Made by a program: the position numbers and the translations under genes. A stretch of 32,680 nucleotides of DNA from Patescibacteria group bacterium (GTDB lineage: Bacteria; Patescibacteriota; Minisyncoccia; GWA2-38-13b), in contig JBBTRL010000042.1 in NCBI GenBank assembly GCA_038065195.1, positions 17,735 to 50,414 on the forward strand, in the 5' to 3' direction. Positions within the stretch are counted from its first letter, which is position 1, and each line of letters opens with the position of its first letter. Shown piece after piece: positions 1,795 through 29,396 of this stretch. Below the pieces are notes generated by a model, which was not told where the DNA came from, searched no databases, and worked only from the letters and a program-made list of their open reading frames with translations.

Positions 1795-1814
1795 ATTAAT
1801 TTTATTTAATTTTT

Positions 1815-1844
1815 TCCGCCCAAGGCGGACCAACCTCGGGCTGG
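1815..1844 (+). repeat. 30-bp double-hairpin element (family B), intergenic copy
   Basis: TCCGCC-CAA-GGCGGA-CCAACC-TCG-GGCTGG; 27/30 identical to the reverse complement of 12295-12324 inside gatB. Confidence 0.85.
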
Positions 1845-1870: not shown

Positions 1871-1881
1871 TGGACTATGAA

Positions 1882-2011
1882 CCCCGTTAGAAATCTGATG
1901 ATTTTGTTTAATTATTATTAAAAAGCAATATGCTTAAAGATTCGTTTCAACAATCCAATAACGAGCAAAAAATTTCGGAAGAAAATTTTTTGCCCAAGAT
2001 TTCTAACGGGG
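1882..2011 (+). mobile_element. MITE-like start-codon element (family A), copy 1, at the dnaE start
   Basis: 15-bp perfect TIR CCCCGTTAGAAATCT/AGATTTCTAACGGGG; flanks ATGAA|...|TAAA; internal hairpin GCAAAAAATTT..AAATTTTTTGC; homologous to copy 4. Confidence 0.9.
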
Positions 2012-5000
2012 TAAATTTTACTCACCTCCATGTCCATAGTCATTTCTCGCTCCTTGACGGTCTCGCTAAAATAGACGAACTCTTGGATCGCGTCAAAGAG
2101 TTAGGAATGGATTCGGTGGCCCTTACCGATCACGGCGTAATGTATGGCGCGATTGAATTTTACAAAAAAGCGAAAGCGCGCGGAATAAAACCGATTATCG
2201 GAATAGAACTATATATTGCCCCGAATGGAATGTTGAATAAACGCCCAAAAATTGACGACAAAAGATATCATATAATACTTTTAGCCAAAAATAATATCGG
2301 ATATAAAAATCTCATTAAACTTACAACCCTTGCTCATCTGGAGGGTTTTTATTATAAACCGCGAATTGACAAAGAATTATTAAAAAAATATTCGGAAGGA
2401 TTGATAGGCGCAAGCGCCTGCGTTTCCGGAGAAATATCACGGCTCGCCATCGCCGGAAAATACGATGAAGCGGAAAAAGCCGCGCTTGAATACGAAAATA
2501 TTTTCGGCAAGGGAAATTTCTATCTTGAAATCGGATACCACCCAAACATACCGGAACAAAAAATAGCTAACGAAGCTTTAATTAAAATTGGCAAAAAAAA
2601 TAATATCGGAATTATAGCAACAAACGATATGCATTATTTAAAAAAGGAAGACGCTGAAGCGCAAGATATTTTATTGGCCATCCAAACGAAAAGTTTAATC
2701 AGCGATACCGACCGTCTAACGATGAAAGACGAAGATTTTTCAATGAAATCGCCGGAAGAAATGGCGAAAAACTTCGAAGATATTCCCGAAGCGCTGGAAA
2801 ACACGCAAAAAATAGCGGATTCGTGCGATCTGGAAATAGAACTTGGAAAAACTCAACTTCCCCACTTTGAAGTTCCCAATGGAAAAACCACTGACGAATA
2901 TCTCAAACAGTTATGCGCGGAAGGAATGGAAAAAAAATACGGGATAATAACCGATATTATTGCCCAACGATTAGAATACGAACTCTTGGTCATCAAGCAA
3001 ACTGGCTTCGCTTCTTATATTCTTATTGTATGGGATTTTGTCTCTTGGGCGAAAAACAATAATATAATTGTCGGACCGGGTCGCGGATCGGCTGCGGGCA
3101 GCATAGTTTCTTATTTATTGAATATTACCGCGATTGACCCGCTAAAATACAATCTGCTTTTTGAAAGATTCTTAAATCCGGAAAGAATCAGTATGCCAGA
3201 TATTGATTTAGATTTTGCCGATACCGGAAGAGACAAAGTTATAGAATATGTTTCTAAAAAATACGGCAAAGATCATGTGGCGCAAATTATCACCTTCGGG
3301 ACTATGGCGGCAAAAGCCGCGGTGCGCGATACGGGCAGAGTTTTAGGCTACCCATATGCTTTCTGCGATCAAACCGCGAAAATGATTCCAATGTTTATGT
3401 CTTTGGAGGAAGCGTTGAACAATGTTCCGGAGCTTAAACAAGCGTATAATTCAAATCCAGACACCAAGAAACTGATTGATTCGGCAAGAAAATTGGAAGG
3501 AGTGGCGCGCCATGCCTCAACGCATGCCTGCGGTGTTGTAATTACCAAAGAAAAATTAGAAAACTACGCTCCGCTTCAACGCGCTCCGCAAAACGAAAAC
3601 AGCGTTATCACGCAATACGAAATGCATGCCATAGAAGACTTGGGATTGCTTAAAATGGATTTTTTAGGACTTAAAAATCTGACTATAATTGAAACGGCGA
3701 TACAGATCATTAAAAATACTAAAAATGAAACTATTGATTTCAATACTATTCCATTGGATGACCAAAAAACATTTGAACTTTTTCAAAAAGGAAACACTAC
3801 CGGAATCTTCCAATACGAATCCGGCGGAATGAAAAGAAATTTACGCGCGCTAAAACCGACTGTATTTGAAGATCTGATAGCTATGAACGCTCTCTATCGT
3901 CCCGGACCGATGGAACACATCCCTGAATACATTGACGCCAAACACGGACGAAAAAAAATAAACTACTTGCATCCTAAAATGAAACCGATTCTTGAAAATA
4001 CTTACGGAGTCATAGTTTACCAAGAGCAAGTTTTGGAAATCGTCAAACAACTCGCCGGATTCAGCTATGGAGAGGCGGATGTATTAAGAAAAGCGGTGGG
4101 CAAAAAAATAAAATCCCTACTGGAAGAACAGAAAAATAAACTCATAGAAAAATTGACGAAAAACGGTATTGGCAATGAACTGACGGAAAAAATATGGAAC
4201 TTCATTGAACCATTCGCTCGTTATGGTTTTAATAAATCGCACAGCGCCTGCTATGCCACAATCGGCTATCAAACCGCTTATTTAAAAACGAATTACCCGA
4301 CGGAATTTATGGCGGCGCTGATGAATTCCGAACAAAATGATATTGAAAGAATTGCGGAAATTATCAAAGAATGCAATGATATGGACATAGAAGTATTACC
4401 GCCAAATATCAATGAAAGTTTTTCCAATTTTACCGTAGTAAACCAGAAACAAATAAGATTCGGGCTGGCTGCCGTTAAAAATGTCGGTGAAAATGTAGTG
4501 GCGGCTATCATCGCCGAACGCAAAGAAAATGGAAAATATAATAAAATTGAAGAATTTATAACACGGGTGCAATCAAAAGACCTTAATAAAAAATCTCTTG
4601 AATCGCTCGTCAAATGCGGCGCGACAGAAGAACTTGGCGAAAGAAAAAAACTGCTGGCAAATATTGAAGATCTTTTAAAATTAGCTCGAGATTTTCAAAA
4701 ATCCAAAGAACAGGGTCAATTCAGTCTGTTTGAAAATGCGCCATGCCTATCGGCAGGCAGGCAAAATAAAAATACTCTGCCCCCCATTCGCCTTAAAGAA
4801 AGTTTAGCCGCGACTAAAAACGAACGGCTCCAGTGGGAAAAAGAATTGCTGGGTCTTTATATATCGGAACATCCATTAAAAGAATTTAAAAATCAACTTG
4901 AAGCTCTTGATTCCATAAAAGAAATTCGATCAAAAACAGACGGAAATATAATATGCGGAGGCATTATAAATAAAATTAAAAAAATTCTTACGCGCCAAAA

Positions 5001-5445
5001 TCAAACAATGCTTTTTGTGGAAATGGAAGACCTTACCGGTCAAATAGAAATAATCGTATTCCCCCGCACCCTGGAATCCAATCCGCTTATTTGGCAAAAT
5101 GATAAAATGATTGTTGTTGAAGGCGCGATGAATAATAAAGACGGAGTACCAAAAATAATAGCCAATAAAACATACTTCTTGGAAGAATATTTAAAAAATG
5201 CCGCTAAAAAACCGGCTATCAAGCATTTGCAAATTAATCTGCAGAAAAATTCCGGAAATCGCTTAATGCAAGATTTGCAAAAAATATTCTCGGAGTTTCC
5301 TGCAGGTTCTACGCAAATATCAATTTCTATTCCTAACGACGGACCGAAACCAAATACCATTGAAACTCCTTATAAAATAAAATATGATGAAAGTATAATA
5401 ACAAAACTTAAACAAATGGGAATAAACGAAATACAAATAATTTAA
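1930..5445 (+). CDS. dnaE: DNA polymerase III alpha subunit (first 27-28 aa are element-derived)
   Basis: PHP motif FTHLHVHSHFSLLDG, plus GPGRGSAAGS, ERISMPDIDLDF, LLKMDFLGL, YGFNKSHS. Confidence 0.98.
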   Translation: MLKDSFQQSNNEQKISEENFLPKISNGVNFTHLHVHSHFSLLDGLAKIDELLDRVKELGMDSVALTDHGVMYGAIEFYKKAKARGIKPIIGIELYIAPNGMLNKRPKIDDKRYHIILLAKNNIGYKNLIKLTTLAHLEGFYYKPRIDKELLKKYSEGLIGASACVSGEISRLAIAGKYDEAEKAALEYENIFGKGNFYLEIGYHPNIPEQKIANEALIKIGKKNNIGIIATNDMHYLKKEDAEAQDILLAIQTKSLISDTDRLTMKDEDFSMKSPEEMAKNFEDIPEALENTQKIADSCDLEIELGKTQLPHFEVPNGKTTDEYLKQLCAEGMEKKYGIITDIIAQRLEYELLVIKQTGFASYILIVWDFVSWAKNNNIIVGPGRGSAAGSIVSYLLNITAIDPLKYNLLFERFLNPERISMPDIDLDFADTGRDKVIEYVSKKYGKDHVAQIITFGTMAAKAAVRDTGRVLGYPYAFCDQTAKMIPMFMSLEEALNNVPELKQAYNSNPDTKKLIDSARKLEGVARHASTHACGVVITKEKLENYAPLQRAPQNENSVITQYEMHAIEDLGLLKMDFLGLKNLTIIETAIQIIKNTKNETIDFNTIPLDDQKTFELFQKGNTTGIFQYESGGMKRNLRALKPTVFEDLIAMNALYRPGPMEHIPEYIDAKHGRKKINYLHPKMKPILENTYGVIVYQEQVLEIVKQLAGFSYGEADVLRKAVGKKIKSLLEEQKNKLIEKLTKNGIGNELTEKIWNFIEPFARYGFNKSHSACYATIGYQTAYLKTNYPTEFMAALMNSEQNDIERIAEIIKECNDMDIEVLPPNINESFSNFTVVNQKQIRFGLAAVKNVGENVVAAIIAERKENGKYNKIEEFITRVQSKDLNKKSLESLVKCGATEELGERKKLLANIEDLLKLARDFQKSKEQGQFSLFENAPCLSAGRQNKNTLPPIRLKESLAATKNERLQWEKELLGLYISEHPLKEFKNQLEALDSIKEIRSKTDGNIICGGIINKIKKILTRQNQTMLFVEMEDLTGQIEIIVFPRTLESNPLIWQNDKMIVVEGAMNNKDGVPKIIANKTYFLEEYLKNAAKKPAIKHLQINLQKNSGNRLMQDLQKIFSEFPAGSTQISISIPNDGPKPNTIETPYKIKYDESIITKLKQMGINEIQII
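4740..4762 (+). repeat. Short imperfect GC-rich palindrome (family D), in frame in the dnaE linker, encoding PCLSAGRQ
   Basis: GCCATGCCTATCGGCAGGCAGGC; 17/19 match to intergenic GCCATACCTACCGGCAGGC at 10114-10132. Confidence 0.65.
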
Positions 5446-5455
5446 TTTTTACATT

Positions 5456-6499
5456 ATGGAAAAAATTGAAACAATAAAAAAAACGGAAAATATAAATACA
5501 AATAAAGAGCAATGGATTGTCTGGGAAGAATATGAAAAATTAAAAAAAGATCCCGGCGCTTCATTATCAACCGAGGGATTGCCGACGGAAAACGAAATAG
5601 ATGATTTTTGCCCGTTATTGCCGATTGAAAAATACAAAAAAATATCTGCGCCAACCAAATATTCATTAAGTGGCAAATTATTTATTTTTGAAAAAGAAAC
5701 AAACGCTATTGCCGCTGTCTATCGTATAAAAAAAGAAAATGACGCATTATGCGAAACGAGAAAATTTTTCAATATTTTTAATAAATCCTATAACGGCTTC
5801 ACGAACATAACCATAAAATATTTATTGGAGGAAAACGAACAAAACAATATCGCAACACGAAAACCGATCAATTTAATCGTGACCGATGCCATTGATCTGG
5901 AAAGAATAATAAAATACGAAGATTTAACCATCAACGAAAACTCTATTTTAAAATCAGAAACATCCAATACCGTCAATATGATTACTTTTGAAAAAATAAA
6001 GAGAGAAGATACGAATAATTCAGCTCAAGAATCTGCGAAAAAAGATTACGAAAATTTTCAAAAAAATGGAAAAATCAATTTAAAAACAGAAGAATATTTA
6101 TTCGAAAAATCCTATAAAATGGAAATTTGGGAAAAAACAGATAATTCCGGCAAAAAACAATACAAAGCATTTATGAAAGATGGAAATAATATATTGAGTA
6201 TGATTGACTATGTAACAAATGAAAATGGCGTAACGAATCGCTTTTCTGAAAAAATTTTTAATGTTTTCAATACAACAAACAAAAAATACGAAAACATAAA
6301 GACAGAACGCTTAATGAATGAAAAAAATGAATTGGATGAAATATCAGTAATAAAAACGGATCCGAAAACGAATGAAATTTTAAGTTTTTATGACAGTGAA
6401 AAAATAAATGAAGTCAAAGGAAGCGATCCAATAAATAAATTTATTTTAGAGGGAAATAAAACTATAGAAAATATCTTTAAAAATATAAAAAATCAATGA
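5456..6499 (+). CDS. Hypothetical protein (347 aa, K/E/N-rich)
   Basis: Long ORF between dnaE and thrS with an ATGA overlap on thrS; no recognised motif. Confidence 0.7.
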   Translation: MEKIETIKKTENINTNKEQWIVWEEYEKLKKDPGASLSTEGLPTENEIDDFCPLLPIEKYKKISAPTKYSLSGKLFIFEKETNAIAAVYRIKKENDALCETRKFFNIFNKSYNGFTNITIKYLLEENEQNNIATRKPINLIVTDAIDLERIIKYEDLTINENSILKSETSNTVNMITFEKIKREDTNNSAQESAKKDYENFQKNGKINLKTEEYLFEKSYKMEIWEKTDNSGKKQYKAFMKDGNNILSMIDYVTNENGVTNRFSEKIFNVFNTTNKKYENIKTERLMNEKNELDEISVIKTDPKTNEILSFYDSEKINEVKGSDPINKFILEGNKTIENIFKNIKNQ

Positions 6500-8325
6500 A
6501 AAAAATAAATGAAATTGAAAAAATCCGCCACAGTTTAAGCCATCTTCTTGCGATAGCTGTTTTGGAAATTTTCCCGAACGCAAAACTTGGGATAGGACCA
6601 ATTATTGAAAACGGTTTTTATTACGACTTTGATCTGTCCGCCGTAGCTGAGAGCGAAGGCGGATTAACTCCCGATCAATTACCCAAAATAGAAAAAAGAA
6701 TGCGGGAACTTGTTAAAATGGGTTTATTATTTCAAAAAGAAATAATTGATTTCGCGAAAGCGAAAAAGACATTCAAAAACAAACCATATAAATTGGAATT
6801 AATTAAAGAAATAAATAAAAATAAACAGAAAATAACAGTATACAAAACATTCGCAAAATACCAAATACCAAATACCAAATACCAAATACAATTTACTTAC
6901 TTGTGCGCTGGACCGCATATTAAATCAACAAAAGAAATCAATCCCGCGGCTTTCAAACTGACTAAAGTCGCGGGCGCTTATTGGCGAGGCGATGAAAAAA
7001 ATAAAATGCTTACCCGTATTTATGGAATTGCTTTTAATTCAGAAAAAGAACTCAAAGAACATATTGAAATGCTTGAAGAAGTGGAAAAAAGAGATCATAG
7101 AAAATTAGGCAAAGAACTTGACCTTTTTACTTTCTCGGATGAAGTAGGTGCTGGGTTGCCTCTTTGGCTTCCTAAGGGAGAAACTATTCGTCACGAACTT
7201 GAAAAATGGGCGCGCGAAACGGAAAAAAAATGGGGGTATCAGCATATTGCAACACCGCATATCACCAAAAGTAAACTTTATGAAATCTCCGGTCATCTTC
7301 CTTATTATAAAGACGACCTTTATTCTCCCATTAACATTGAAGGAGAGGAATACTATTTAAAACCTATGAATTGTCCGCATACGCATATGATATATAACGC
7401 GCGGTTAAGAAGTTACCGCGAATTACCTTTGCGTCTCGCCGAATATGGGCAAGTCTACCGCTTTGAAAAATCTGGAACACTGCATGGCTTAATGCGTGTC
7501 CGCGGATTCTGCCAAAACGATGCTCATATATATGTTCAACCGGAAAAAGCGGTTGAAGAATTTATCAATGTTATAAAAATGCACGAATATTATTATAAAA
7601 CACTCGGTATCCAAAATTGGCGAGTGGTACTCGGAACTAGAGATCGTAAAAATTTAAGAAAAAAATATCATGGCAACGACGCAATGTGGGATATGGCCGA
7701 AAAATTATCAAAAGAAGCGCTTGAAAAATCGAGCATAAAATATGAAATTGAAGAGGGCGGAGCGGCGCATTACGGACCAAAAGCAGACATATATATACAA
7801 TCGGTTATCGGTAAAGAATATGCCATAGGCACCGACCAACTTGATCTCTATATGCCGCAACGGTTTAATTTGTCTTATATAGATAAAAACGGAAAAGAAA
7901 CGATGCCATACATCATACATCGCGCGCCATTGGGATCGCACGAAAGAATGATCGGATTTTTAATTGAACACTACGCAGGCGCTTTTCCAATATGGCTATC
8001 ACCCATTCAAGTCCGCATTGTTCCAATAAGCGAAAAATTCAATAAATATGGAATTGAAATTTTAGAAAAACTCAAGCAATTTGATATACGAGCGGAACTT
8101 GACGACAACAACGAAACTTTGGGGAAAAAAATAAGAGAAGGCGAAAAACAAAAAACGCCGTATTTGTTGATACTCGGCGGCAGAGAGGAAGAAAATAAAA
8201 CCGTCGGGGTTCGCCAACGCGGTAAAGGCGATATGGGCGAAATGAAAATGGTCGAATTCTTGGAAAAAATAAAAAATGAAATTAATAATAAAGATCTCCC
8301 GAAAGAGAATAATAAAAAATTATAA
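6496..8325 (+). CDS. thrS: Threonine--tRNA ligase (lacks the N-terminal TGS domain)
   Basis: RHSLSHLL, GFYYDFD, LCAGPH, RDHRKLG, LKPMNCP, IHRAPLGSHER. Confidence 0.98.
   Translation: MKKINEIEKIRHSLSHLLAIAVLEIFPNAKLGIGPIIENGFYYDFDLSAVAESEGGLTPDQLPKIEKRMRELVKMGLLFQKEIIDFAKAKKTFKNKPYKLELIKEINKNKQKITVYKTFAKYQIPNTKYQIQFTYLCAGPHIKSTKEINPAAFKLTKVAGAYWRGDEKNKMLTRIYGIAFNSEKELKEHIEMLEEVEKRDHRKLGKELDLFTFSDEVGAGLPLWLPKGETIRHELEKWARETEKKWGYQHIATPHITKSKLYEISGHLPYYKDDLYSPINIEGEEYYLKPMNCPHTHMIYNARLRSYRELPLRLAEYGQVYRFEKSGTLHGLMRVRGFCQNDAHIYVQPEKAVEEFINVIKMHEYYYKTLGIQNWRVVLGTRDRKNLRKKYHGNDAMWDMAEKLSKEALEKSSIKYEIEEGGAAHYGPKADIYIQSVIGKEYAIGTDQLDLYMPQRFNLSYIDKNGKETMPYIIHRAPLGSHERMIGFLIEHYAGAFPIWLSPIQVRIVPISEKFNKYGIEILEKLKQFDIRAELDDNNETLGKKIREGEKQKTPYLLILGGREEENKTVGVRQRGKGDMGEMKMVEFLEKIKNEINNKDLPKENNKKL
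6637..6663 (+). repeat. 27-bp hairpin insert, in frame in thrS (SAVAESEGG)
   Basis: TCCGCC-GTA-GCT-GAG-AGC-GAA-GGCGGA; same outer TCCGCC/GGCGGA stem as family B. Confidence 0.7.
6856..6890 (+). repeat. Heptamer tandem repeat (AAATACC)x4 + AAATACA inside thrS
   Basis: Directly visible; encodes KYQIPNTKYQIQ just before F-x-x-LCAGPH. Confidence 0.95.
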
Positions 8326-8436
8326 CTTTATTTTTGAAATAAACTAATTTACTTTGAATTACGAAACGCTTTAATTTAATTTTTCATAATTCAAGGTAAT
8401 TAAATTAGTTTATTTCAATAAAACATATAACATCTT

Positions 8437-10098
8437 ATGAATAAAATTTTTAAAAGCGCGGTTATTTTATCAATTATCGCTATTTTTACATTTTACGCCG
8501 ATATAAGTTTAGCTCAAACACAAGGCAATAATGACAATATTTCTAACAATGCAACGACAACCGAACCAAACGAAATTCCTGAAGAAATTCAAGTAATCAT
8601 AAATGAAGATGAAAATATTACGGCTAATGATTTGGAAATTAAAGAACCGACTCTACTGCCCGGAAATCCTTTTTATTTTTTAAAAAACATTGGCAGGACA
8701 TTAAAATCATCAGTCACTTTCAGCCCAATAAAAAAAGCGGAATTAAAATTGCGTTTTACTAACGAAAGATTGATGGAAATCCAAAAAATCGCCGAATCAA
8801 ACAATGATCCGAAATTATTGGAAAAAGCGCTTGATAAATATGGACAAGAATTGAAAAAAATTAAAGAAACAACGGAAAAAATAGGTGAAAAAAATAGTGA
8901 AAAAAATGAAACATTCCTAAATAAATTTATTGATAATCAAATTAAACATCAAAAATTGCTGGAAAAAATAGGAGAAAAAGTTCCGAAAGAAGTTTTTGAA
9001 AAAATACAAGAAAACCAACAGATCGCCATTCAAACACTGTCGGATGTTCCGCTTATGTTCATCAGCGCGGATCGTTTTCAAGAAAAAATAGAAGAAAGAA
9101 TGGAAAATCAAAGCGGCAGCGATTTTAAAAATTTCAGAAATCTGGAAATTTTAAAAGAGCTGGAAGGTAAAGTTCCCGATGCCGCCAAAAACGCGATCAA
9201 ACGCGCGCAGGAAAATACCTTTAAACGACTTAATGAAAAAATAGAAGAAAAAGAAAATACGGCTGAAAATTTCACTCTTTACATCAAGCATATTGGCGGA
9301 GATACGGAAAAACATATGGATACAATCAATAATCTTGAAACAATAAATGATCTTCGAGACAAAAATGCTTCTATGGTAGTAAAAAACGCATTGGAAAAAG
9401 CTAGAGAAATAAATATTGGAAGAATTAAAAATAAAATTGAACGAATGGAAATGGATGAAAAAACAGAAGAAACAACCAAAAATACCGACGACGAAAAATA
9501 CGAAAAAACAGCAACATTTCAACAATCAAGCAAAGAACAAATTGAAAAAGCCGCGTTAATGATAGAAAAAGCGAAGGTAAATTTTGAATCGGCAAAAAAT
9601 AATTCCGCCCTTAGTGATAAATTGAATTCCGCCTCAATACTTATAAAAAATGCTCAAATCCATCTGGAAAAAGCGCGAATGGCATATGTAAAAGAATCAT
9701 TCGGCGAAGCGTTTGGTCAATCCAACGCTGCAATGCACAATGCAAATAATGCCATCGGAATAATCGCAAAATTGGAGATAAACAAAAATTCCGAAGACGA
9801 AAAAGATAATGACAGTAAAAACGAAGATGAGGACGAAAATATTGAAGACGAAACCAACAATAACGATACGACAAAAAATGATGATCCGACGACAATAATT
9901 GACAAGGAACAACTATGCGCTCAAGTAATAACTCCGGCAAAAAATCAAAAAACCGGCGAATGCCGTGAATTCCCGACCGCCTGTATACCGCATGAATGGT
10001 ATAAAGTGCGCGCTTGTGAAAAAAATCAAACAGATCCCAATTATCCTATTCGCCCTGTGGATAAAAATTCCAACACGAACAACATTCCTGTAGAATAA
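8437..10098 (+). CDS. Secreted coiled-coil protein with DUF5667-like domain and C-terminal Cys motif
   Basis: Signal peptide; LLPGNPFYFLK...KKAELKLRFTNERLMEI; acidic low-complexity linker; CAQVITPAKNQKTGECREFPTAC. Confidence 0.75.
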   Translation: MNKIFKSAVILSIIAIFTFYADISLAQTQGNNDNISNNATTTEPNEIPEEIQVIINEDENITANDLEIKEPTLLPGNPFYFLKNIGRTLKSSVTFSPIKKAELKLRFTNERLMEIQKIAESNNDPKLLEKALDKYGQELKKIKETTEKIGEKNSEKNETFLNKFIDNQIKHQKLLEKIGEKVPKEVFEKIQENQQIAIQTLSDVPLMFISADRFQEKIEERMENQSGSDFKNFRNLEILKELEGKVPDAAKNAIKRAQENTFKRLNEKIEEKENTAENFTLYIKHIGGDTEKHMDTINNLETINDLRDKNASMVVKNALEKAREINIGRIKNKIERMEMDEKTEETTKNTDDEKYEKTATFQQSSKEQIEKAALMIEKAKVNFESAKNNSALSDKLNSASILIKNAQIHLEKARMAYVKESFGEAFGQSNAAMHNANNAIGIIAKLEINKNSEDEKDNDSKNEDEDENIEDETNNNDTTKNDDPTTIIDKEQLCAQVITPAKNQKTGECREFPTACIPHEWYKVRACEKNQTDPNYPIRPVDKNSNTNNIPVE

Positions 10099-10113
10099 AA
10101 TTACCAACCCAAA

Positions 10114-10140
10114 GCCATACCTACCGGCAGGCTCGGGCGG
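10114..10140 (+). repeat. Intergenic family-D palindrome remnant
   Basis: GCCATACCTACCGGCAGGCTCGGGCGG, similar to the dnaE in-frame insert. Confidence 0.55.
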
Positions 10141-10163
10141 AAGAAATAAAGTAATTACTACAA

Positions 10164-10193
10164 GCAAAAACAAGGTGTCCGCCTTGTTTTTGC
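10164..10193. terminator. Terminator-like hairpin
   Basis: GCAAAAACAAGG-TGTCCG-CCTTGTTTTTGC, 12-bp stem. Confidence 0.7.
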
Positions 10194-10224
10194 AATAATT
10201 TCCAGTTAAAATTTTATCTATAAA

Positions 10225-10319
10225 CCCCGTTAGATATCTTCCGTCGTTTTATACACAAAATATCCTAACAGGAAATAATCAAGCAAATATGCGAAAATCA
10301 TCAAAAATATCTAACGGGG
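10225..10319 (+). mobile_element. Family A start-codon element, copy 2, at the miaB start
   Basis: 13-bp TIR CCCCGTTAGATAT/ATATCTAACGGGG; flanks ATAAA|...|TGAA; GTG rebuilt at 10319. Confidence 0.9.
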
Positions 10320-11683
10320 TGAAATATCATATCACAACATTCGGCTGTCAAACAAATCAGTCCGATTCGGAAAGAATCGCAGCTATTTTAAATAAAATTG
10401 GTTTTAAACCAGCGCTTTCTCAAGATGACGCCGATTTCATAATCGCCAACGCTTGTTCCGTTCGGCAATCGGCGATTGATAGAATCCACGGCATCGCTCA
10501 TAAAATCCAAAAAAAGAAAAAAAGAGGCGAAAAAACATCAATCACCATTCTCACTGGTTGCGTTTTAGAACAAGACAGAAAAAAACTAGTTCAAAAATTT
10601 GATGCCATAATTGACATCCGAGAAATTGAAAAATTACCGCAAATAATAAAAAAATTGAGAAAAAATAAAAGCATAATCGCCGGCAGAGCAAAACATTCCG
10701 ATATACAACGATGGAAAACTGCCGAAAAATCTACCGATTATTTTAAGATTACTCCGTCTTACGAATCTTCTTTTTCCGCTTTTGTGCCAATAATGACCGG
10801 CTGTAATAATTTTTGCACTTATTGCGCCGTTCCCTATACGCGGGGAAAGGAAGTCTCTCGACCGACAATTAACATAATAAAAGAAGTGAAAAAATTAGTA
10901 AAAAACGGCTATAAGGAAATAACTTTATTGGGGCAAAATGTAAACTCTTACATTGATAACAACGAAAAAAATCCTAAAAATTTCGCCTGTCTGCTTAAAA
11001 TAGTTAATGAAATTCCGGGCGATTTTTGGATACGATTCCATTCTTCCCATCCGAAAGATTTTACGAACGAACTTATTGACACCATCGCTTCTTGCGAAAA
11101 AGTAACAAAATATATCAGCTTACCGGTTCAGGCCGGAAACGATAAAGTGCTTAAAAAAATGAACCGTCCGTATACTATTTTTCAATATAAAAAATTAGTA
11201 AAAAAAATACGGGAAAAAATTCCCAACGCGTCAATATCAACCGATTTTATCGTTGGATTTCCAAGCGAAACAAAAAAACAATTTCAGGACTCCATAAAAT
11301 TATTCAAAAATTTAAAATTTGATATGGCTTATATCGCGCAGTATTCTTCACGTTCAGGCACAACGGCAGAAAAGATTTTTAAAGATAATGTATCGCCCAA
11401 AGAGAAAGAACGGCGCGACCGCGAGCTTACAGCCGTTTTACGAAAAACATCGCTGAATATAAATAAAAAACTTGTCGGAACAACCCAACAAGTTTTAATT
11501 GAAAAAGAAATAAAACGGCAAAATGGCCATTGGCTAATCGGCAAAACGTGCGGATTTAAAACGGTAAAAATACCGCTTGCTTCCGATTCCGATAAAAAAC
11601 TAATCGGCAATTTTGCCGATGTCAAAATAATAAAAGCACTGGATATGGGACTTATCGGTAAAATCAACCAATTATTTCTTTAA
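10289..11683 (+). CDS. miaB: tRNA-i6A37 methylthiotransferase MiaB (start ATG 10289 or GTG 10319)
   Basis: TFGCQxNxxDSE, NACSVRQSA, radical SAM CNNFCTYC, TDFIVGFP, C-terminal TRAM domain. Confidence 0.9.
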   Translation: MRKSSKISNGVKYHITTFGCQTNQSDSERIAAILNKIGFKPALSQDDADFIIANACSVRQSAIDRIHGIAHKIQKKKKRGEKTSITILTGCVLEQDRKKLVQKFDAIIDIREIEKLPQIIKKLRKNKSIIAGRAKHSDIQRWKTAEKSTDYFKITPSYESSFSAFVPIMTGCNNFCTYCAVPYTRGKEVSRPTINIIKEVKKLVKNGYKEITLLGQNVNSYIDNNEKNPKNFACLLKIVNEIPGDFWIRFHSSHPKDFTNELIDTIASCEKVTKYISLPVQAGNDKVLKKMNRPYTIFQYKKLVKKIREKIPNASISTDFIVGFPSETKKQFQDSIKLFKNLKFDMAYIAQYSSRSGTTAEKIFKDNVSPKEKERRDRELTAVLRKTSLNINKKLVGTTQQVLIEKEIKRQNGHWLIGKTCGFKTVKIPLASDSDKKLIGNFADVKIIKALDMGLIGKINQLFL

Positions 11684-13169
11684 GTAAATCTGCCGCTATT
11701 TGCGGATTCGCCTTGCCTTTTGTTTCTCGCATAACTTGACCAATTAAAAACTGCAATGATGCCCCTTGTTTTTTTTTATAATCCTCTACGGCCTTGAAAT
11801 TATTTTTAATAACGGTTTTTACAATCTCCGTTAACGCTTCAATATCGCTTTCTTGCCCCATTCCCCTTTCTTCAATAATTTGCGACGGGTCATTGCCGGT
11901 TTTTACCATTTCGCGCAAAACCTCCTGCGCTCCGGACGACGAAATATCGCCTTTATGCGTTAAAATTATCAATTCCGCAAAATTTTCCGGACTGATTTTT
12001 ATTTCGCCATAATCCTCTATTCCGAATTCTCGCGCTAATTTCTGCAATTCCGTAATCAAATAATTCGCGGAAAGTTTTATAAGCCGCGCCGTATGTTCGC
12101 TTAAATTTTCTATTCTTACTTTATGCGCGTTTTTATCCCACGCCTGAATTTCCGAAATTACCTGCTCAAAATAATCACCCAATTCTTTATTAACAACGAA
12201 TATCTCAATATTTTCTTCCGGCAAACCATATTCTAACGCAAATCTTTTCCGTCTTTTTTGCGGCAATTCCGGTAAATTTGAGATTCGAGATTTGTCAGCC
12301 CGAGGCTGATCCGCCTTGGGCGGAAGATTTGAAATTTTCGATAATGGAATATCCGGTTCCGGAAAATACCGATAATCTTTCGCTGTTTCTTTTGCCCGCT
12401 GGGAAAATGTTTTTTGCTTATCCGCGTCCCAACCGCGCGTTTCCTGCGCAATTTTTTCGCCTTTTTCTAAAATTTCCGCCTGCCGTTCAATTTCGTAATC
12501 AATGGATTTTTCTACCGCCTTAAAAGAATTTAAGTTTTTAATTTCCGCTTTTGTTCCCAATTTCTTGTTTTTTGATAAAGAAATATTCACTTCGCACCTC
12601 ATTTGCCCTTTCTCCATATCAGCATCAGAAATTCCCAAATATCGAAAAATTAATTGAATTTCTTCGCAAAATTTTTTCGCTTCCGCGCCGGAAGAAATAT
12701 CCGGTTCGGTTACAAGCTCCATTAACGGCGCGCCAGCGCGATTAAAATCAACCAAACTATAATCTACGTTCTGCGGATGATAAAGCCGACCGGTATCTTC
12801 TTCTATGTGTATTTCCTTGATGCGAATTTTTTTACCGCCTATTTCAAAAAATCCGTTTTGGCACAACGGTTTCCAAAATTGTGAAATCTGGTATCCTTTT
12901 GGCAAATCGGGATAAAAATAATTTTTTCTGTCAAACTGAATAATTTCCGCCATTTCGCAGTTCAAAGATTTTCCGGTCAAAATAACCGATTCAACGGCTT
13001 TTTTATTCGGAACAGGTAATGTGCCCGGATGCCCCATACAAATAGGACAAACATTAATATTGGGATGCTTTTCGTCGGAATCATTCAAACACGCGCAAAA
13101 CATCTTGGTTTTTGTTTTTAATTCCGCATGTATTTCCAAACCGATTGTTGACTTAAATTTATTTAACAT
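11664..13169 (-). CDS. gatB: Asp-tRNA(Asn)/Glu-tRNA(Gln) amidotransferase subunit B
   Basis: IGLEIHAEL, CPICMGHPGTLP, FDRKNYFYPDLPKGYQISQ, DYRYFPEPD; likely start ATG 13169. Confidence 0.98.
   Translation of the reverse strand: MLNKFKSTIGLEIHAELKTKTKMFCACLNDSDEKHPNINVCPICMGHPGTLPVPNKKAVESVILTGKSLNCEMAEIIQFDRKNYFYPDLPKGYQISQFWKPLCQNGFFEIGGKKIRIKEIHIEEDTGRLYHPQNVDYSLVDFNRAGAPLMELVTEPDISSGAEAKKFCEEIQLIFRYLGISDADMEKGQMRCEVNISLSKNKKLGTKAEIKNLNSFKAVEKSIDYEIERQAEILEKGEKIAQETRGWDADKQKTFSQRAKETAKDYRYFPEPDIPLSKISNLPPKADQPRADKSRISNLPELPQKRRKRFALEYGLPEENIEIFVVNKELGDYFEQVISEIQAWDKNAHKVRIENLSEHTARLIKLSANYLITELQKLAREFGIEDYGEIKISPENFAELIILTHKGDISSSGAQEVLREMVKTGNDPSQIIEERGMGQESDIEALTEIVKTVIKNNFKAVEDYKKKQGASLQFLIGQVMRETKGKANPQIAADLLKEIIG
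12295..12324 (-). repeat. 30-bp double-hairpin element (family B), in frame in gatB (PPKADQPRAD)
   Basis: TCCGCC-CAA-GGCGGA TCAGCC-TCG-GGCTGA, two perfect 6-bp stems, nested in degenerate AAATCTC-like heptamers. Confidence 0.9.
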
Positions 13170-13180
13170 ATTTGGTATAT

Positions 13181-13744
13181 TTAAAACAATACGGAACTGC
13201 AAGTATCAAGCTCGCGGTTTACCAATTTATCCGCTTGTTTATTCCCATCGCGTAAAATATGACGAAAAACAATCAGCGAAAAATCAATTTTTAAATTCCA
13301 GAGTTGCAAAAACAAACTCTGGATTTTTTTATCCAAAACTTTGTATTTTCCGGTAATCTGCTTGAATAAAAGTTCGGAATCAACTAAAACTTCCACTTCC
13401 CTATTCTTAACGCCGACTTTCCCCAAAAGCGCTTTTGTCTTTTTTAAAGCGAAAATCACGGCTTCATACTCCGCTTCATTGTTGGTCTTTTCACCCAAAT
13501 ACTGCGAATATTCTTTAATATTTCCATTATATTCAATTACAACTCCCGAAGCCGACGGTCCGGGATTTCCACGCGATCCGCCGTCGCAATGGATAATCAC
13601 TCTATTCACCCCGTTAGAAGTCTGTTTTACCCGATTATTATGATTTACTTCAGACATAATTCGTTTTTTTTGTACATTCCCCGTTAATCTAATGCGGAAA
13701 AAATTGTTAAATTTTTTCCGCCAAGGACTTCTAACGGGGCTCAT
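13181..13744 (-). CDS. rnhA: Ribonuclease HI (core begins at GTG 13609; the upstream 45 codons are element-derived)
   Basis: CDGGSRGNPGPSASG, TNNEAEYEA, DSELL, NKQADKLVN. Confidence 0.92.
   Translation of the reverse strand: MSPVRSPWRKKFNNFFRIRLTGNVQKKRIMSEVNHNNRVKQTSNGVNRVIIHCDGGSRGNPGPSASGVVIEYNGNIKEYSQYLGEKTNNEAEYEAVIFALKKTKALLGKVGVKNREVEVLVDSELLFKQITGKYKVLDKKIQSLFLQLWNLKIDFSLIVFRHILRDGNKQADKLVNRELDTCSSVLF
13609..13739. mobile_element. Family A start-codon element, copy 3, at the rnhA start (in frame; appears inverted relative to copies 1 and 4)
   Basis: 14-bp TIR CCCCGTTAGAAGTC/GACTTCTAACGGGG; gene-strand flanks ATGAG|...|TGAA; internal hairpin GCGGAAAAAATT-GTTA-AATTTTTTCCGC. Confidence 0.9.
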
Positions 13745-15483
13745 ATTATGCTATTTTTTAAATCAATAATTTTAAATTCTAAATTTCTTCTTCCATTCCA
13801 CTCATTAAGTATTAAATTAAAAACAATATCAATCTTATCTCCCACTTTTATTTTATCATACCATTCGCCCAACCCAAAGCCAATGCAATTAAATTCCTTG
13901 CCGCCGCAATCAATTATTGTTTTTAAATGTCCTGCGCCGTTCTTTCCAACCACTCGCAAGTCTTTTACAACACATTCTCGCAATAAAAAAGTCGGCTCTT
14001 CATTGCTTGGTCCGAAAGGCCGGAAATCTTCCGTAATTTCGTATAAATCCCACCAACTTAAAATTTGAGATTCAATATTTAATTCCATATCTATATCTAT
14101 TTCCGGCATCAAATCCTTGTTTTTAATTTCACTATTGGCTATTTCTATAATGCGCTTTTTAAAAACCGCGATATTTTCATTTTTAATATGAAATCCCGCC
14201 GCCATTGCATGACCGCCGCATTCGTCAAGTAAATCACCGACCCTTCTTAACGCTTCCACTATGTTAAATGATTTAATTGTGCGCGCCGAACCGTCCGAAT
14301 TAATTTCGCCTTGATGAAAAATTAAAGCCGGTCTGCGATATTTTTCCGCTAATTTTCCGGCAATTAAACCAACGATACCCACCGACCAATCAGGTGAACC
14401 ATCAATAATAATTTTATCTTTCGGATCATCTCCTATCTTTGCGCAAACTTCTTTAAAAATTTTATCGCACAAATTCTGCCTATCTTTATTTATCGCATCT
14501 AATTTATTCAATATTCGCCCGATTTCATTTTCATCAGACGAATTCAAAAGTTCAAAAGATGTATTAGCATGCTCCATTCGTCCCGCCGCGTTGAGCCGCG
14601 GACCAATCATAAAACCCAAATCCCGCGCATTAAGTCCAAAAATATCAAATTTTCTGCGTTCGGATTTTTTAACTTTTGCGCTATCTTTACCGATTAATTT
14701 TAAAAGCGCTTTCAATCCCTTGCGTTTTGTTTTCGTAAGAACAACAAGACCGTATTTAACTAATGTCCTATTCTCACCAAGCAAAATCATTCTATCAGTT
14801 ATGGTTGATATTGCCACTAAATCTAAAAACCATTTTTCCCTTTCATTATTTATACCATTTGCGTCAAACAACGCTTTGACGAATTTAAAAACAACCCCCG
14901 CCGCCGACAATTCCTTAAAAGGATAACAATCACCTTTTCGACGAGGATTTATTATCGCGACCGCCTTTGGCAATTTTGGAGGAATTGTATGATGATCAAT
15001 AATTATAACATCCATACCCAAAGAATTCGCCAACTCCACTTCTTTATAATCACTTACGCCACAATCAACAGTCATAATAAGATCGGTTTTTTGTTTTGAC
15101 AAAAAACGCACACTTTCAAAATTCAAACCATAACCCTCTTTATTTCTATCAGGTATATAAATTCCCGGTTCCGCGCCAACTGCCTTCAAGGCGTCCATTA
15201 ATATTGTGGCGCTGCAAATTCCATCCGCGTCATAATCGCCGTAAACAGTTATTTTCTTTTTTTTGATTATCGCCGTTTTCACTCTTTTTATCGCTTTACC
15301 CATATCCTTTAATAATTTAGGATTATGCAAATCCTTATCGTAATCCGGTCCCAAAAATTCATCAATCTCTTTTTGTGTTTTAATGTCGCGATTAAAAAGA
15401 AGCTGTAATGTCACGGCATTCATTTCCGGAAATTTATTAAAAAAAACTTTCGGAACCTTAGATTTTAAAATCCAATTATTCAT
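13741..15483 (-). CDS. recJ: Single-stranded-DNA-specific exonuclease RecJ
   Basis: YGDYDADG, TVDCG, IIDHH, GPRLNAAGR, GGHAMAAG, PFGPSN. Confidence 0.97.
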   Translation of the reverse strand: MNNWILKSKVPKVFFNKFPEMNAVTLQLLFNRDIKTQKEIDEFLGPDYDKDLHNPKLLKDMGKAIKRVKTAIIKKKKITVYGDYDADGICSATILMDALKAVGAEPGIYIPDRNKEGYGLNFESVRFLSKQKTDLIMTVDCGVSDYKEVELANSLGMDVIIIDHHTIPPKLPKAVAIINPRRKGDCYPFKELSAAGVVFKFVKALFDANGINNEREKWFLDLVAISTITDRMILLGENRTLVKYGLVVLTKTKRKGLKALLKLIGKDSAKVKKSERRKFDIFGLNARDLGFMIGPRLNAAGRMEHANTSFELLNSSDENEIGRILNKLDAINKDRQNLCDKIFKEVCAKIGDDPKDKIIIDGSPDWSVGIVGLIAGKLAEKYRRPALIFHQGEINSDGSARTIKSFNIVEALRRVGDLLDECGGHAMAAGFHIKNENIAVFKKRIIEIANSEIKNKDLMPEIDIDMELNIESQILSWWDLYEITEDFRPFGPSNEEPTFLLRECVVKDLRVVGKNGAGHLKTIIDCGGKEFNCIGFGLGEWYDKIKVGDKIDIVFNLILNEWNGRRNLEFKIIDLKNSII

Positions 15484-15485
15484 AT

Positions 15486-16715
15486 TTATTTAAGCGCTTC
15501 AATCCCCGGTAATTTATTTTCCGCCAAATATTCCAGCATAGCGCCGCCACCCGTAGAAATATAAGAAAATTTATCCAAAATACCCATTTTACTGATCGCA
15601 GCAATGGTATCTCCGCCACCTACTATTGAATAAGCGCCCGATTTGCTTATGGCCCCGGCTATAGCTTTTGTTCCGTTTGAAAATATTTCCATATCGGCGC
15701 GTCCCATCGGACCATTCCAAATAATTGTTTTGGATTCTCTGATTAAGGAACAAAACAAATCCACGCTTCGCCCTCCTATATCTAAAATAATATCGTCCCT
15801 TGAAACACTGCCAATCTGCACGGCTGTCGCGCCACTGGCTCCGTCTAAATCTTTAGACACGACGACATCAACCGGAACCGTAAATTTTATATTCGCCACT
15901 TTCATTTTTTTAATCGCCGGAATAACTTCTGGACTGATTATTGAACGACCAACTTCTTCGCCTTTAACCGATAAAATGGTATTTGCCACAACGCCGCCCA
16001 GTATTATAAAATCCGCTTTCGGTAAGAAATTACCAATTACTCTAACTTTTGTTTCGGCTTTTAAACCGCCAATTATTACAGTTACCGGATGCGCGGGATT
16101 TTTAAGCGCTTTATCCAAAATATCAATTTCTTTTGCCAAAGATAAACCAACGAAAGAAGGTAAAAATTCAGTTATCGCCTCAACCGAAGCGTGCGCCCTA
16201 TGGCATACGCTAAAAGCATCATTCACAAAAATATCGGCAAATGACGCTAATTTTTCGGCAAATTTTTTATTATTATTTTCTTCTTCTTTATAAAAACGGA
16301 TATTCTCCAAAAGACAAATTTTATCGCAATTAATATTTTTTAATTCGCGTATATCGTCTTCGATGAAATTAATTTTTTCTCCGATAATATCTTCTAAATG
16401 ACCTATTAAAGGCTTTAAACTATAAGCTTTATGCCATTCACCATTAGGTCTGCCGAGATGCGAAACTAAAATAATTTTATTGCCATCTTTCAGAAGAAAT
16501 TTTATTGTTGGCAATGCTGATTTAACGCGATAATCTTCATCGCTCAAAACTTTGCCATCTGCCGTAGGCAGATTAAAATCAACCCGCAAAAGAACGGTTT
16601 TATTTTTAATTTTACTGTTTTTTAGTAATTTCACCCCGATAGAAGTCCTTGGTAAAAAATTTCCTTCCGAATTTTTTTGTTTGCCATTAAGTTGTTGAAA
16701 TGAATTCTTGAGCAT
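15486..16715 (-). CDS. pgk: Phosphoglycerate kinase (start ATG 16715 or GTG 16634)
   Basis: LRVDFNLP, SHLGRP, LLENIRF, NDAFSVCHRAHAS, WNGPMG, GGGDT, STGGGAMLE. Confidence 0.97.
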   Translation of the reverse strand: MLKNSFQQLNGKQKNSEGNFLPRTSIGVKLLKNSKIKNKTVLLRVDFNLPTADGKVLSDEDYRVKSALPTIKFLLKDGNKIILVSHLGRPNGEWHKAYSLKPLIGHLEDIIGEKINFIEDDIRELKNINCDKICLLENIRFYKEEENNNKKFAEKLASFADIFVNDAFSVCHRAHASVEAITEFLPSFVGLSLAKEIDILDKALKNPAHPVTVIIGGLKAETKVRVIGNFLPKADFIILGGVVANTILSVKGEEVGRSIISPEVIPAIKKMKVANIKFTVPVDVVVSKDLDGASGATAVQIGSVSRDDIILDIGGRSVDLFCSLIRESKTIIWNGPMGRADMEIFSNGTKAIAGAISKSGAYSIVGGGDTIAAISKMGILDKFSYISTGGGAMLEYLAENKLPGIEALK

Positions 16716-16763
16716 ATTGCTTTTAATAATAATTAAATTAAAATCATTGGACTTCTAGCGAAG
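16634..16763 (-). mobile_element. Family A start-codon element, copy 4 (degenerate TIR), at the pgk start
   Basis: CTTCGCTAGAAGTCC...GGACTTCTATCGGGG; 130 bp like copy 1 and alignable throughout; flanks ATAAA|...|TGAA. Confidence 0.88.
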
Positions 16764-16774
16764 TTTATATTTTA

Positions 16775-16783
16775 ATTTTACCA
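16775..16783 (-). promoter_or_regulatory. Extended -10 box for pgk
   Basis: TGGTAAAAT lies 6 nt before the inferred ancestral start position (ATA at 16768). Confidence 0.5.
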
Positions 16784-16805: not shown

Positions 16806-16834
16806 TTGACAAGCAATAAAAATAAAAGTATAAT
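16806..16834 (+). promoter_or_regulatory. Consensus sigma70 promoter
   Basis: TTGACA-N17-TATAAT; RBS AAGGAGGTG at 16867-16875. Confidence 0.85.
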
Positions 16835-26364: not shown

Positions 26365-26910
26365 TTAAAATCCCGAACCAATAGCTTTTTTACCGGCTTT
26401 TTGCCTTACATATTCTCCGACATAACGAATACCCTTTCCTTTATACGGCTCCGGTTTCTTCATATCGCGAATTTTCGCCGCTATTTCACCAACTAATTGA
26501 TTATCAATACCGGAAACGGTAATTATATTCTTTTCCACATTAAAAGCAATGCCTTGAGGAGCAGTAATTTCCATAGGGTGCGAAAAACCCAATAACAAAA
26601 TCAATTTATTCCCCTGAACACTTGCCCGATAACCTACGCCTTTGATTTCAAGCTGTCGACTAAAACCGCTTACCGCTCCCTTGACGGCATTGGAAACCAA
26701 CGCATTAATAAGTCCCCATATGGCCATTGTTTTTTTTTCTTTTGATTTTGGAAACAAGAAAAATTCCTTTGCTTCCAATTTAAATTCCAATACTGACGGA
26801 ATTTCCACAGAAATCTCGCCTTTTGGGCCTTTAACCCTGGCAATATTCGCTTCAATCCTAAAGTCAACATTATCCGGAATATTAATTTTTCGCTTACCTA
26901 TATGAGACAT
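26365..26910 (-). CDS. rplF: 50S ribosomal protein L6
   Basis: MSHIGK, VKGPKG, GVGYRA, PEPYKGKGIRY; start ATG 26910. Confidence 0.97.
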   Translation of the reverse strand: MSHIGKRKINIPDNVDFRIEANIARVKGPKGEISVEIPSVLEFKLEAKEFFLFPKSKEKKTMAIWGLINALVSNAVKGAVSGFSRQLEIKGVGYRASVQGNKLILLLGFSHPMEITAPQGIAFNVEKNIITVSGIDNQLVGEIAAKIRDMKKPEPYKGKGIRYVGEYVRQKAGKKAIGSGF

Positions 26911-26999
26911 GGAATAATCTCGAATATACGAATACTCGCAAATATACAAATAACATATTCGTATATTAGTTTAAAATTCGTATATTCGCGAATAGTTCT
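26911..26999. repeat. Palindromic CGAATATA-unit spacer element (family C), copy 1, between rpsH and rplF
   Basis: Direct CGAATATA-like units followed by inverted TATATTCG-like units; alignable with 28561-28641. Confidence 0.85.
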
Positions 27000-28560: not shown

Positions 28561-28641
28561 AGAGTAATCACGAATATACGAATGTACACAAATATACGAA
28601 TTCGTATATTATTTAAAATTTGTGTATTCGTGAATAGTCCT
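28561..28641. repeat. Family C spacer element, copy 2, between rplN and rplX
   Basis: CACGAATATACGAAT...AATATACGAATTCGTATATT...TATTCGTGAATAG; homologous to 26911-26999. Confidence 0.85.
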
Positions 28642-29010: not shown

Positions 29011-29328
29011 TTATATATTTTCTTTTTTTTTATTATTAATTAATTGTTTTACAATCCACCTTTTTTCTTTTGACAATGGCCTACACTCTTCAATTACAAC
29101 CCGATCTCCAATCTTATATTCATTTCCTTCGTCATGAGCTTTAAAATTCTTACTGACAGTAAAATACTTATGATAACGAGAATGCTTTTTAAGAACATCT
29201 ATTCTAACCACTATAGTCTTGTCCATTTTATCGGATACCACGATGCCCTTAAGCCGCCTTTTTTTTATTACATTATCGGTGTTTTTTATATCCACCCCGT
29301 TAGAAATTTTTTGCCCTTGTGATTCCAT
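29011..29328 (-). CDS. rpsQ: 30S ribosomal protein S17 (start ATG 29328 or GTG 29295)
   Basis: [30 protein letters not shown]. Confidence 0.96.
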
Positions 29329-29396
29329 AAAATTCTTTACTTAATTCAATATTATTATATTTTCCCGCAAAATCAATAATAAGATTTCTAACGGGG
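29295..29396 (-). mobile_element. Family A start-codon element, copy 5, at the rpsQ start
   Basis: 13-bp TIR CCCCGTTAGAAAT/ATTTCTAACGGGG; perfect flanking duplication ATGGA|...|TGGA. Confidence 0.92.

Follow-up and report, generated by a model that had tools for sequence, protein, structure and literature searches.

A family of small inverted-repeat elements that sits on patescibacterial start codons, and its probable contribution to the N-termini of DnaE and other proteins

Background

Why should two unrelated housekeeping proteins, DnaE and Pgk, begin with similar residues? Both are encoded in a 32,680-nt stretch of the genome of a groundwater member of the Patescibacteria, hereafter the window (contig C42:17735-50414 of genome G000, 808,814 bp in 102 contigs). 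The longest open reading frames (ORFs) of dnaE and pgk are 1930..5445 on the forward strand and 15486..16715 on the reverse strand. Their first 28 codons encode MLKDSFQQSNNEQKISEENFLPKISNGV and MLKNSFQQLNGKQKNSEGNFLPRTSIGV, respectively, with 19 of the 28 residues identical by script translation. It had been predicted from the window alone that these leaders come from inserted elements of about 130 bp, which donate new N-termini to the proteins of their host genes. Indeed, both leader ATGs lie inside such elements, exactly 27 codons before a junction valine. The window contains five copies, all bounded by CCCCGTTAGAA.. and ..TTCTAACGGGG, and each of them holds an ATG in frame with the host gene, as claimed. 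The leaders of MiaB, RNase HI and S17 end with ..ISNG-V or ..TSNG-V, and this common ending is provided by the right inverted repeat of the element.

The element occupies the ancestral start codon of its host gene and rebuilds it. This feature was absent from the original prediction and is central to the analysis described here. Probably, a MITE (miniature inverted-repeat transposable element) or similar element settles on start codons and rebuilds a GTG, an ATG inside the element can take over, and the N-termini of DnaE, a Mur ligase and two other proteins are encoded by the element.

Insertion into start codons

The terminal inverted repeats have the form CCCCGTTAGAA(A/G)T... Paired repeats delimit 45 copies in the genome by script, and the pgk copy, with its degenerate distal repeat, brings the total to 46 in 0.81 Mb. 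Twenty of these 46 copies (~43%) lie exactly on a gene start. The element inserts behind the A of A·TG(A/G)A, where the dot marks the insertion point, and thereby turns A·TGAA into ATGAA-[element]-G·TGAA. An in-frame GTG arises from the element's last G and the duplicated TG, and the old ATG remains on the far side. Both inverted repeats are free of stops in the gene frame, where one gives ..PVR.. and the other ..SNG-V; the right repeat reads TCT AAC GGG G+TG. Downstream of the start-codon copies, the encoded proteins start at canonical N-termini; among them are SSB, an S21-like protein, RfbB, a Mur ligase, DnaE, MiaB, RNase HI, S17, uL4, trigger factor, an ATP-cone (NrdD-like) protein and Pgk.

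The genome has 164 gene starts overlapping T[GA]AA against 7,277 intergenic TRAA/TTYA sites, and thus ~2% of the copies are expected at starts (binomial p = 2e-21 for the observed 20 of 46); with the target restricted to ATG[AG]A and to tolerated sites only, ~17% are expected and 17 of 19 were observed (binomial p = 8e-12), all these figures resting on crude longest-ORF calls and on copies that are not independent within a subfamily. Three further candidates were dropped from the count of start-codon copies: C99:11194 is in the 5' region of pheS, off its start, and the frames abutting C91:5861 and C59:1089 are not gene-like. Targeting of leaderless promoters was rejected as a rule. A -10-like box occurs 6-8 nt before the old ATG in dnaE, miaB and pgk (in dnaE it is TATAAT, 6 nt before the old ATG in both G000 and the same-genus genome G001), whereas S17, uL4 and rnhA are operon-internal.

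The genome G001 was examined whole; its identity to G000 in the genes with start-codon copies is ~80-90%. Seventeen of the 20 start-codon sites were located there, and the other three gave no match. Thirteen of the 17 sites are empty, with the ATG exactly at the single unduplicated 4 bp. These are the sites of ssb, rfbB, dnaE, miaB, rnhA, rpsQ, a glycosyltransferase gene, an exonuclease gene, the C93 gene, rplD, tig, the NrdD-like gene and pgk. The remaining four sites, those of the S21-like gene, the Mur ligase gene, C83 and C100:10546, are occupied. The empty sites with an ATG at the 4 bp demonstrate insertion into start codons and set the polarity of the event.

The 4-bp direct repeats flanking the element are perfect in 21 of 46 copies. 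They vary in sequence (TGAA, TAAA, TGGA, TATG, CTTG), TGAA or TAAA being the most common, and the target consensus is R·TRAA. Scoring of 20 stretches of G010, a genome from a different family, covered 23 copies. Roughly ten of these lie against an ORF of at least 137 codons, at the start codon or in frame within the ORF, and have duplications TGAA, TGGA or TTGA. The remaining copies in this genome have TTGA/TCAA duplications, often at TTGACA-like sites.

Two insertions lie within the ATGA stop/start overlap of adjacent genes (window 13739-13744 and G000:C14:8747-8751). There, the left duplication retains the TGA stop of the upstream gene, and the right one supplies the GTG of the downstream gene.

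The family is a MITE-like non-autonomous transposon: the copies have terminal inverted repeats and a 4-bp target duplication, orthologous sites are empty in the related species, and the elements are small, multicopy and have no internal transposase gene. The five copies of the window are listed in Table 1.

Table 1. Element copies in the window and the features associated with them
Feature	Position	Strand	Remarks
dnaE copy, subfamily B	1882..2011	+	130 bp; inverted repeats CCCCGTTAGAAATCT (from 1882) and AGATTTCTAACGGGG (to 2011); site empty in G001
Ancestral dnaE ATG	1877-1879	+	6 nt after TATAAT (1865-1870); left duplication TGAA at 1878-1881
dnaE upstream frame from the old ATG	1877..1921	+	14 codons; stop TAA at 1919-1921, 8 nt before ATG 1930
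DnaE leader, probably element-encoded	1930..2013	+	28 codons; junction codon GTA at 2011-2013 (decayed rebuilt start)
dnaE right duplication	2012-2015	+	TAAA
Predicted DnaE junction-spanning tryptic peptide			ISNGVNFTHLHVHSHFSLLDGLAK
miaB copy	10225..10319	+	95 bp, at miaB start; site empty in G001; left duplication TAAA (old ATG changed to ATA); rebuilt GTG 10319-10321; in-frame ATG 10289, 10 codons before junction
rnhA copy	13609..13739	-	131 bp, in ATGA stop/start overlap with upstream 580-aa gene; rebuilt GTG starts at 13609; in-frame ATG 16 codons before junction; old ATG 13744 in frame (45 codons before junction), open through whole element
pgk copy, subfamily B	16634..16763	-	130 bp; gene-distal repeat degenerate; site empty in G001; rebuilt GTG 16634-16632; leader ATG 16715; old ATG changed to ATA (16768-16766); distal duplication TAAA 16767-16764
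S17 (rpsQ) copy	29295..29396	-	102 bp; duplication TGGA on both sides; rebuilt GTG 29295-29293; in-frame ATG 29328, 11 codons before junction; frame of old ATG crosses the element and stops at TAA inside right repeat, 4 nt before GTG

Structure and distribution of the family

The length of the copies is 26-135 bp; a few doubtful ones extend up to 202 bp. The exact repeat pair has 20 matches in G000 and none for a reversed control pattern, far more than chance would give. It is present in 19 of 41 related genomes from many families. In a phylum-wide sample of 301 genomes, other classes included, 13 contain the 15-mer TTCTAACGGGGTGAA, whereas the reversed control gave one match.

The interiors split into mutually unrelated subfamilies. 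Subfamily A (~120-135 bp) has, besides a hairpin module and a further copy of the repeat in its interior, a second stem maintained via compensatory and G-U changes. Subfamily B comprises the copies at dnaE, pgk and a Mur ligase gene (C12:14973-15101) and carries the hairpin module of subfamily A in the opposite orientation. The dnaE and pgk copies are inverted relative to each other (1862-2018 and 16627-16783), with 74% complementarity over 157 nt. The third copy is 88% identical to that of dnaE and encodes MFKNSLQQSNGEQKILEKNFLPKTSNGV. Among 401 genomes of the class, subfamily B was found only in G000; the others produced at most short marginal matches.

Two further candidate features of the interiors were considered. 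The hairpin module is gene-distal in 11 copies of subfamily A and its variants and gene-proximal in the three subfamily-B copies, and no claim of orientation bias is made from this 11:3 ratio. A conserved small ORF behind a GAGG-ATG motif in subfamily A was ruled out, as the ATG is not conserved.

Nested or tandem copies were observed at C22:21838-21888, C91:5846-5970 and C93:1664-1814 of G000. Short forms of 26-40 bp, scarcely more than the two repeats, occur inside or beside longer copies. In G001, the copy at the S21-like gene (C11) contains a nested short insert.

Candidate start codons of the host genes

The junction codon of the 20 start-codon copies is GTG in 16 cases and GTA in four: dnaE, the Mur ligase gene C12:14973, C83:2100 and C100:10546. 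The rebuilt GTG expected in dnaE by the original prediction is therefore not there. All four changes from GTG to GTA are in the third position and synonymous if the codon is read as valine. In all four GTA genes the element holds an in-frame ATG, from which the frame is open up to the junction; in total, 12 of the 20 start-codon copies have an in-frame internal ATG.

In the young insertions, whose sites are empty in G001, the GTG is kept in 12 of 13 cases, the exception being dnaE. Three of the four older, shared insertions have an internal ATG, and in all three the GTG has turned into GTA in one or both species. At C100, the codon is GTG in G001 and GTA, with an additional GGG>GGA change, in G000; an ATG lies 10 codons upstream in both. 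In C83, both species have GTA and an in-frame ATG. In the Mur ligase gene, GTA is also present in both, and the in-frame ATG is 27 codons upstream in G000 and 11 in G001. The first 18 codons after the Mur ligase junction differ between the species by two synonymous and two conservative changes, a pattern suggesting that these codons are translated. The S21-like gene is the only old insertion without an internal ATG, and it has kept GTG in both species.

In dnaE, the old ATG is not in the frame of the gene. Past the junction, the first in-frame start is a TTG ~23 codons in, beyond the HLHVH motif. The closest relatives of this DnaE in the genome collection belong to Candidatus Staskawiczbacteria, Nealsonbacteria and other Patescibacteria. 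Of 76 Patescibacteria homologues, 68 begin with an ATG located 3-7 codons ahead of the HLH motif, and the homologues lack a leader. Thus a downstream start of DnaE is unlikely. Since the old ATG is cut off and the junction is GTA, translation should begin inside the element, either at the ATG 27 codons or at an in-frame TTG seven codons upstream of the junction. Most likely the start is ATG 1930, which would give an extension of 27 residues. DNA contigs from two independent studies cover the elements at dnaE, miaB, rnhA and pgk, and no variant is listed at the dnaE junction.

The distribution of internal ATGs points in the same direction. They are in frame at 11 of 23 element ends abutting an ORF of at least 90 codons versus 8 of 67 other ends (Fisher p = 7e-4, with copies within a subfamily not being independent). 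In G010, several gene-start copies contain an ATG that precedes the junction by 8-9 codons. Modelling of read-through transcripts predicts a probability of being unpaired of 0.06-0.28 for the junction and 0.43-0.72 for the internal ATGs, except for the C100 copy.

These observations are consistent with the following scenario. After a fresh insertion the gene can start at the rebuilt GTG, although in the predicted fold this codon is buried in the stem of the paired terminal repeats. If the element has an in-frame ATG, ribosomes can initiate there, in what is predicted to be more open RNA. Once this ATG is in use, the GTG would become an internal valine codon, free to drift to GTA. In dnaE, ATG 1930 may be reached by re-initiation after the 14-codon frame from the old, possibly leaderless ATG. 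Re-initiation is plausible given the short distance between the stop of this frame and ATG 1930, as the same layout is repeated in the Mur ligase copy. For subfamily A, possible routes to initiation might be a promoter within the element, cutting of the stem between the repeats, or base pairing between the left repeat and the repeat copy in the interior.

Translational coupling was rejected as a general mechanism. In S17, the frame of the old ATG closes 4 nt upstream of the GTG, and in dnaE and the Mur ligase gene it closes 7-8 nt upstream of the leader ATG, but in the other copies the distance is 12-130 nt. Within the dnaE and pgk copies, a simple scan detected no gene-strand promoter. A single difference is listed inside the dnaE copy, a 1-nt change in the length of an A run at 1920, seen at about half the contig depth in two DNA runs from different studies. 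It is upstream of ATG 1930 and removes a base from the stop region of the upstream frame.

The donation of N-termini by the element is thus partly supported. It appears obligatory for DnaE and the three other genes with GTA junctions. It is not general: the GTG is intact in 16 of 20 copies, and leaders are excluded for eight subfamily-A copies, which have an in-frame stop and no ATG. Pgk, MiaB, RNase HI and S17 are undecided, as their GTG is intact and either this codon or an in-frame upstream start may serve; for Pgk the possible starts are the GTG and the leader ATG.

Evidence against and alternative explanations

A number of observations weigh against element-encoded N-termini and against the model as a whole. 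The differences between the three subfamily-B leaders are distributed over the codon positions as 5/3/3, 4/7/8 and 5/6/7, which is no coding signature. The comparison of substitutions in the leader frame, proposed as a check of the original prediction, thus turned out negative. Because there is no third-position excess, the similarity of the dnaE, pgk and C12 leaders should be ascribed to shared element DNA, in part a conserved hairpin, rather than to selection on the peptide; part of the leader is the very module that subfamily A carries in the opposite orientation. No properly spaced Shine-Dalgarno box precedes ATG 1930 or any other internal ATG, and such boxes were detected for only ~100-150 of 662 crudely called G000 genes. 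In the eight subfamily-A copies mentioned above, the in-frame stop is 4-6 codons before the junction codon. The GTG of this subfamily is predicted to be buried, and the proposed model leaves initiation there unexplained. DnaE could start at the TTG, and then its extension would be only seven residues. The interiors of the Mur ligase elements differ between the two species, and a shared old insertion assumes later replacement of the interior. The metatranscriptome run X9 yielded ~200-nt contigs of depth ~2 in dnaE, miaB and other genes, none of which crosses an element. Finally, the autonomous partner was not found: no repeat pair wider than 260 bp occurs in G000 or G010. To this one should add the limits of the enrichment figures given above.

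Some of these points would be expected if the leaders were never translated, all genes starting at the rebuilt GTG or downstream, and the in-frame ATGs were accidents of AT-rich element DNA. Retention of the GTG in 16 of 20 copies, the eight copies with an in-frame stop just upstream, the absence of third-position bias in the three subfamily-B leaders and of Shine-Dalgarno boxes before the internal ATGs, and the leaderless DnaE homologues all agree with this explanation. However, four genes, including the essential dnaE, have a GTA junction and no other start before the conserved residues; the Mur ligase codons past the GTA evolve as coding sequence in two species; and in-frame ATGs are four times more common at gene-abutting ends than at other ends. 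We therefore regard untranslated leaders as unlikely. Another explanation would be removal of the elements from the RNA, by cutting of the repeat stem and rejoining of the ends or by some other processing, which would restore the original AUG-AA.. message. The repeat pair does form a long stem (z = -6.3 for the dnaE copy), it flanks tRNA-Ala and tRNA-Pro genes in two other genomes in the manner of a processing stem, with no target duplication, and the old ATG persists in 11 of 20 copies. However, removal predicts the opposite of what is seen in at least six copies, those of miaB and pgk among them: loss of the old ATG (now ATA, ACG, AGG or ATT) and retention of the GTG. No listed sequencing-run joint skips an element, the RNA cover being too thin for a test, and no pathway that cuts and rejoins mRNA is known in bacteria. 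This makes RNA removal very improbable.

It is hardly credible that the repeats are a vertically inherited cis-regulatory leader common to many genes, such as a structured 5' untranslated region or an attenuator, rather than mobile DNA. Although many families of the class share an identical 11-nt repeat, which also occurs in other classes, the stems of subfamily A are kept by compensatory and G-U changes, and no transposase was found, 13 of 17 orthologous sites in the sister species lack the element and have the 4 bp unduplicated. Moreover, the duplications vary in sequence, the interiors of the subfamilies are unrelated, nested copies exist, and the window has no family match in Rfam. Insertion of a MITE-like element at start codons, with an internal ATG able to take over in some genes, thus remains the preferred explanation.

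Candidate mobilising enzymes

We searched for transposases with three profiles, PF13701, PF01609 and PF13843, and no other transposase families. PF13701 had no matches in 41 related genomes. PF01609 had matches in three of 41, unrelated to the repeat copy number. PF13843 had no matches in five genomes, but it also had none in the control genomes. The identity of the repeat across many families, together with the absence of a detectable transposase, points to an unrecognised mobilising enzyme.

Transposons of the IS1380 and piggyBac type have a 4-bp TTAA-like target duplication and ends beginning with CC(C). The present family is similar in the 4-bp duplication of TTAA-like composition and in the CC(C) ends. 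It differs in that the corresponding profiles (PF13701 and PF13843) gave the negative results above, and in that no long element with these repeats occurs in G000 or G010.

A 2.4-kb contig of G000 contains an IS-like element (C78:1069-2245) with a 376-aa ORF that has an rve domain, bounded by the 12-nt inverted repeat TGTATAACGCCA / TGGCGTTATGCA. This element was rejected as a partner, as its inverted repeats differ from those of the family.

Related repeats and neighbouring features

In two genomes, the repeat pair CCCCGTTAGAAATTAC .. AAATTTCTAACGGGG directly flanks a tRNA gene: tRNA-Ala(CGC) in G002:C16 (L202:301-410) and tRNA-Pro(CGG) in G024:C1 (L203:301-405). The left flank of these pairs is TTCA, with no matching duplication on the right. 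The pair could be a processing stem, or the tRNA could be carried by the element.

The dnaE start of another Patescibacteria genome (L146) is preceded by ..GCTTCAAACGGG, directly followed by ATG, and the frame reads ..ASNG-M. To judge by the sequence, this appears to be a divergent version of the repeat end studied here, in which the junction has ATG instead of GTG.

A second, GC-rich repeat of ~40 nt (..TTCCGCCCAAGGCGGACCAACCTCGGGCTG..) lies upstream of dnaE (window 1804-1843) and in inverted orientation at 12296-12335, the two copies being 85% complementary. It has more than ten matches on several contigs of G001 and constitutes a separate small repeat family. A perfect match to a sigma-70-type promoter (TTGACA, 17 nt, TATAAT) is located at 16806-16834 on the forward strand. 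It adjoins the pgk element and faces a divergent gene at 16880. Intergenic CGAATATAC-rich repeats were observed in the ribosomal-protein cluster (window 26908-26951, 28558-28601 and 28552-28649), one of them being a 49-nt palindrome.

Implications

Selfish DNA survives in a very compact genome by sitting at the base position where the broken start codon is restored. Restoration of the start lets the element occupy essential genes: dnaE, ssb, rplD, rpsQ, pgk, tig. Young and old insertions together form a dated series for the acquisition of new N-termini by proteins. There is also a consequence for annotation. Gene callers select the ATG of the element in some genes and the GTG in others, and predicted Patescibacteria proteomes hold ..SNGV leaders that are either spurious or real.

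More tentatively, the ends of the element may be adapted to start codons. Insertion would then be directed to A·TG(A/G)A, beyond mere tolerance there, and the last G that rebuilds the start, the stop-free repeats and, in many subfamilies, an own in-frame ATG would make the element a portable start cassette for Patescibacteria housekeeping proteins. The enzyme moving it would belong to none of the recognised transposase families, and the repeat pair would perhaps serve as a tRNA-processing stem as well. We consider this extension possible, with more doubt than belief. If true, it would mean that a portable cassette has repeatedly supplied new N-termini to Patescibacteria housekeeping proteins.

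Comparison with known systems

In the literature (full texts, supplements excluded), we found no description of a bacterial MITE targeting or rebuilding start codons, and none of MITEs in the Candidate Phyla Radiation.

Correia elements (NEMIS) and other bacterial MITEs share with the present family a length of 100-155 bp, inverted repeats at both ends, numerous copies near genes, co-transcription and the formation of long stems. The target duplication of Correia elements is TA, whereas here it is 4 bp, and ~43% of the copies are exactly on start codons. In addition, the repeat of the present family is conserved across the whole class and the interiors are highly varied. Correia units are described as containing promoters and an IHF site (Delihas 2011, PMC3184786).

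The same review describes Neisseria REP2 and Borrelia IR as repeats directly upstream of genes, to which they bring a promoter and a ribosome-binding site together with an ATG start. The likeness is in the donation of a start codon, and hence of the first residues. However, REP2 as characterised there has no terminal inverted repeats, whereas the present family has inverted repeats and a target duplication and no evident ribosome-binding site. It also targets and rebuilds the ancestral start codon itself, and does not have the defining features of REP2-type repeats.

Rickettsia palindromic elements (RPEs) are described as short palindromic repeats with no known transposase, which lie in frame in or at genes and add peptides to unrelated housekeeping proteins (a 2024 review of MITEs, PMC10969869). 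Similarly, the rnhA frame is open here from the old ATG through the whole element, and two copies of an 80-bp subfamily in G010 are in frame inside longer ORFs. This subfamily (L018, L025:2191-2270) is fully open and encodes (D/N)PVRN...SNGV, 28 residues including the duplication. Judging by the frames, an RPE-like in-frame reading may occur in rnhA, miaB and the two G010 ORFs, and would be obligatory in the four genes with GTA junctions. The difference is that RPEs are internal in-frame insertions; placement on start codons, the 4-bp duplication and rebuilding of the start are not among the RPE traits in the passages of that article that describe them. The hosts differ as well, the phylum being Patescibacteria in our case, and the families are compared here by description. 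The family resembles both RPEs and the Neisseria REP2 repeats and appears to be a member of neither.

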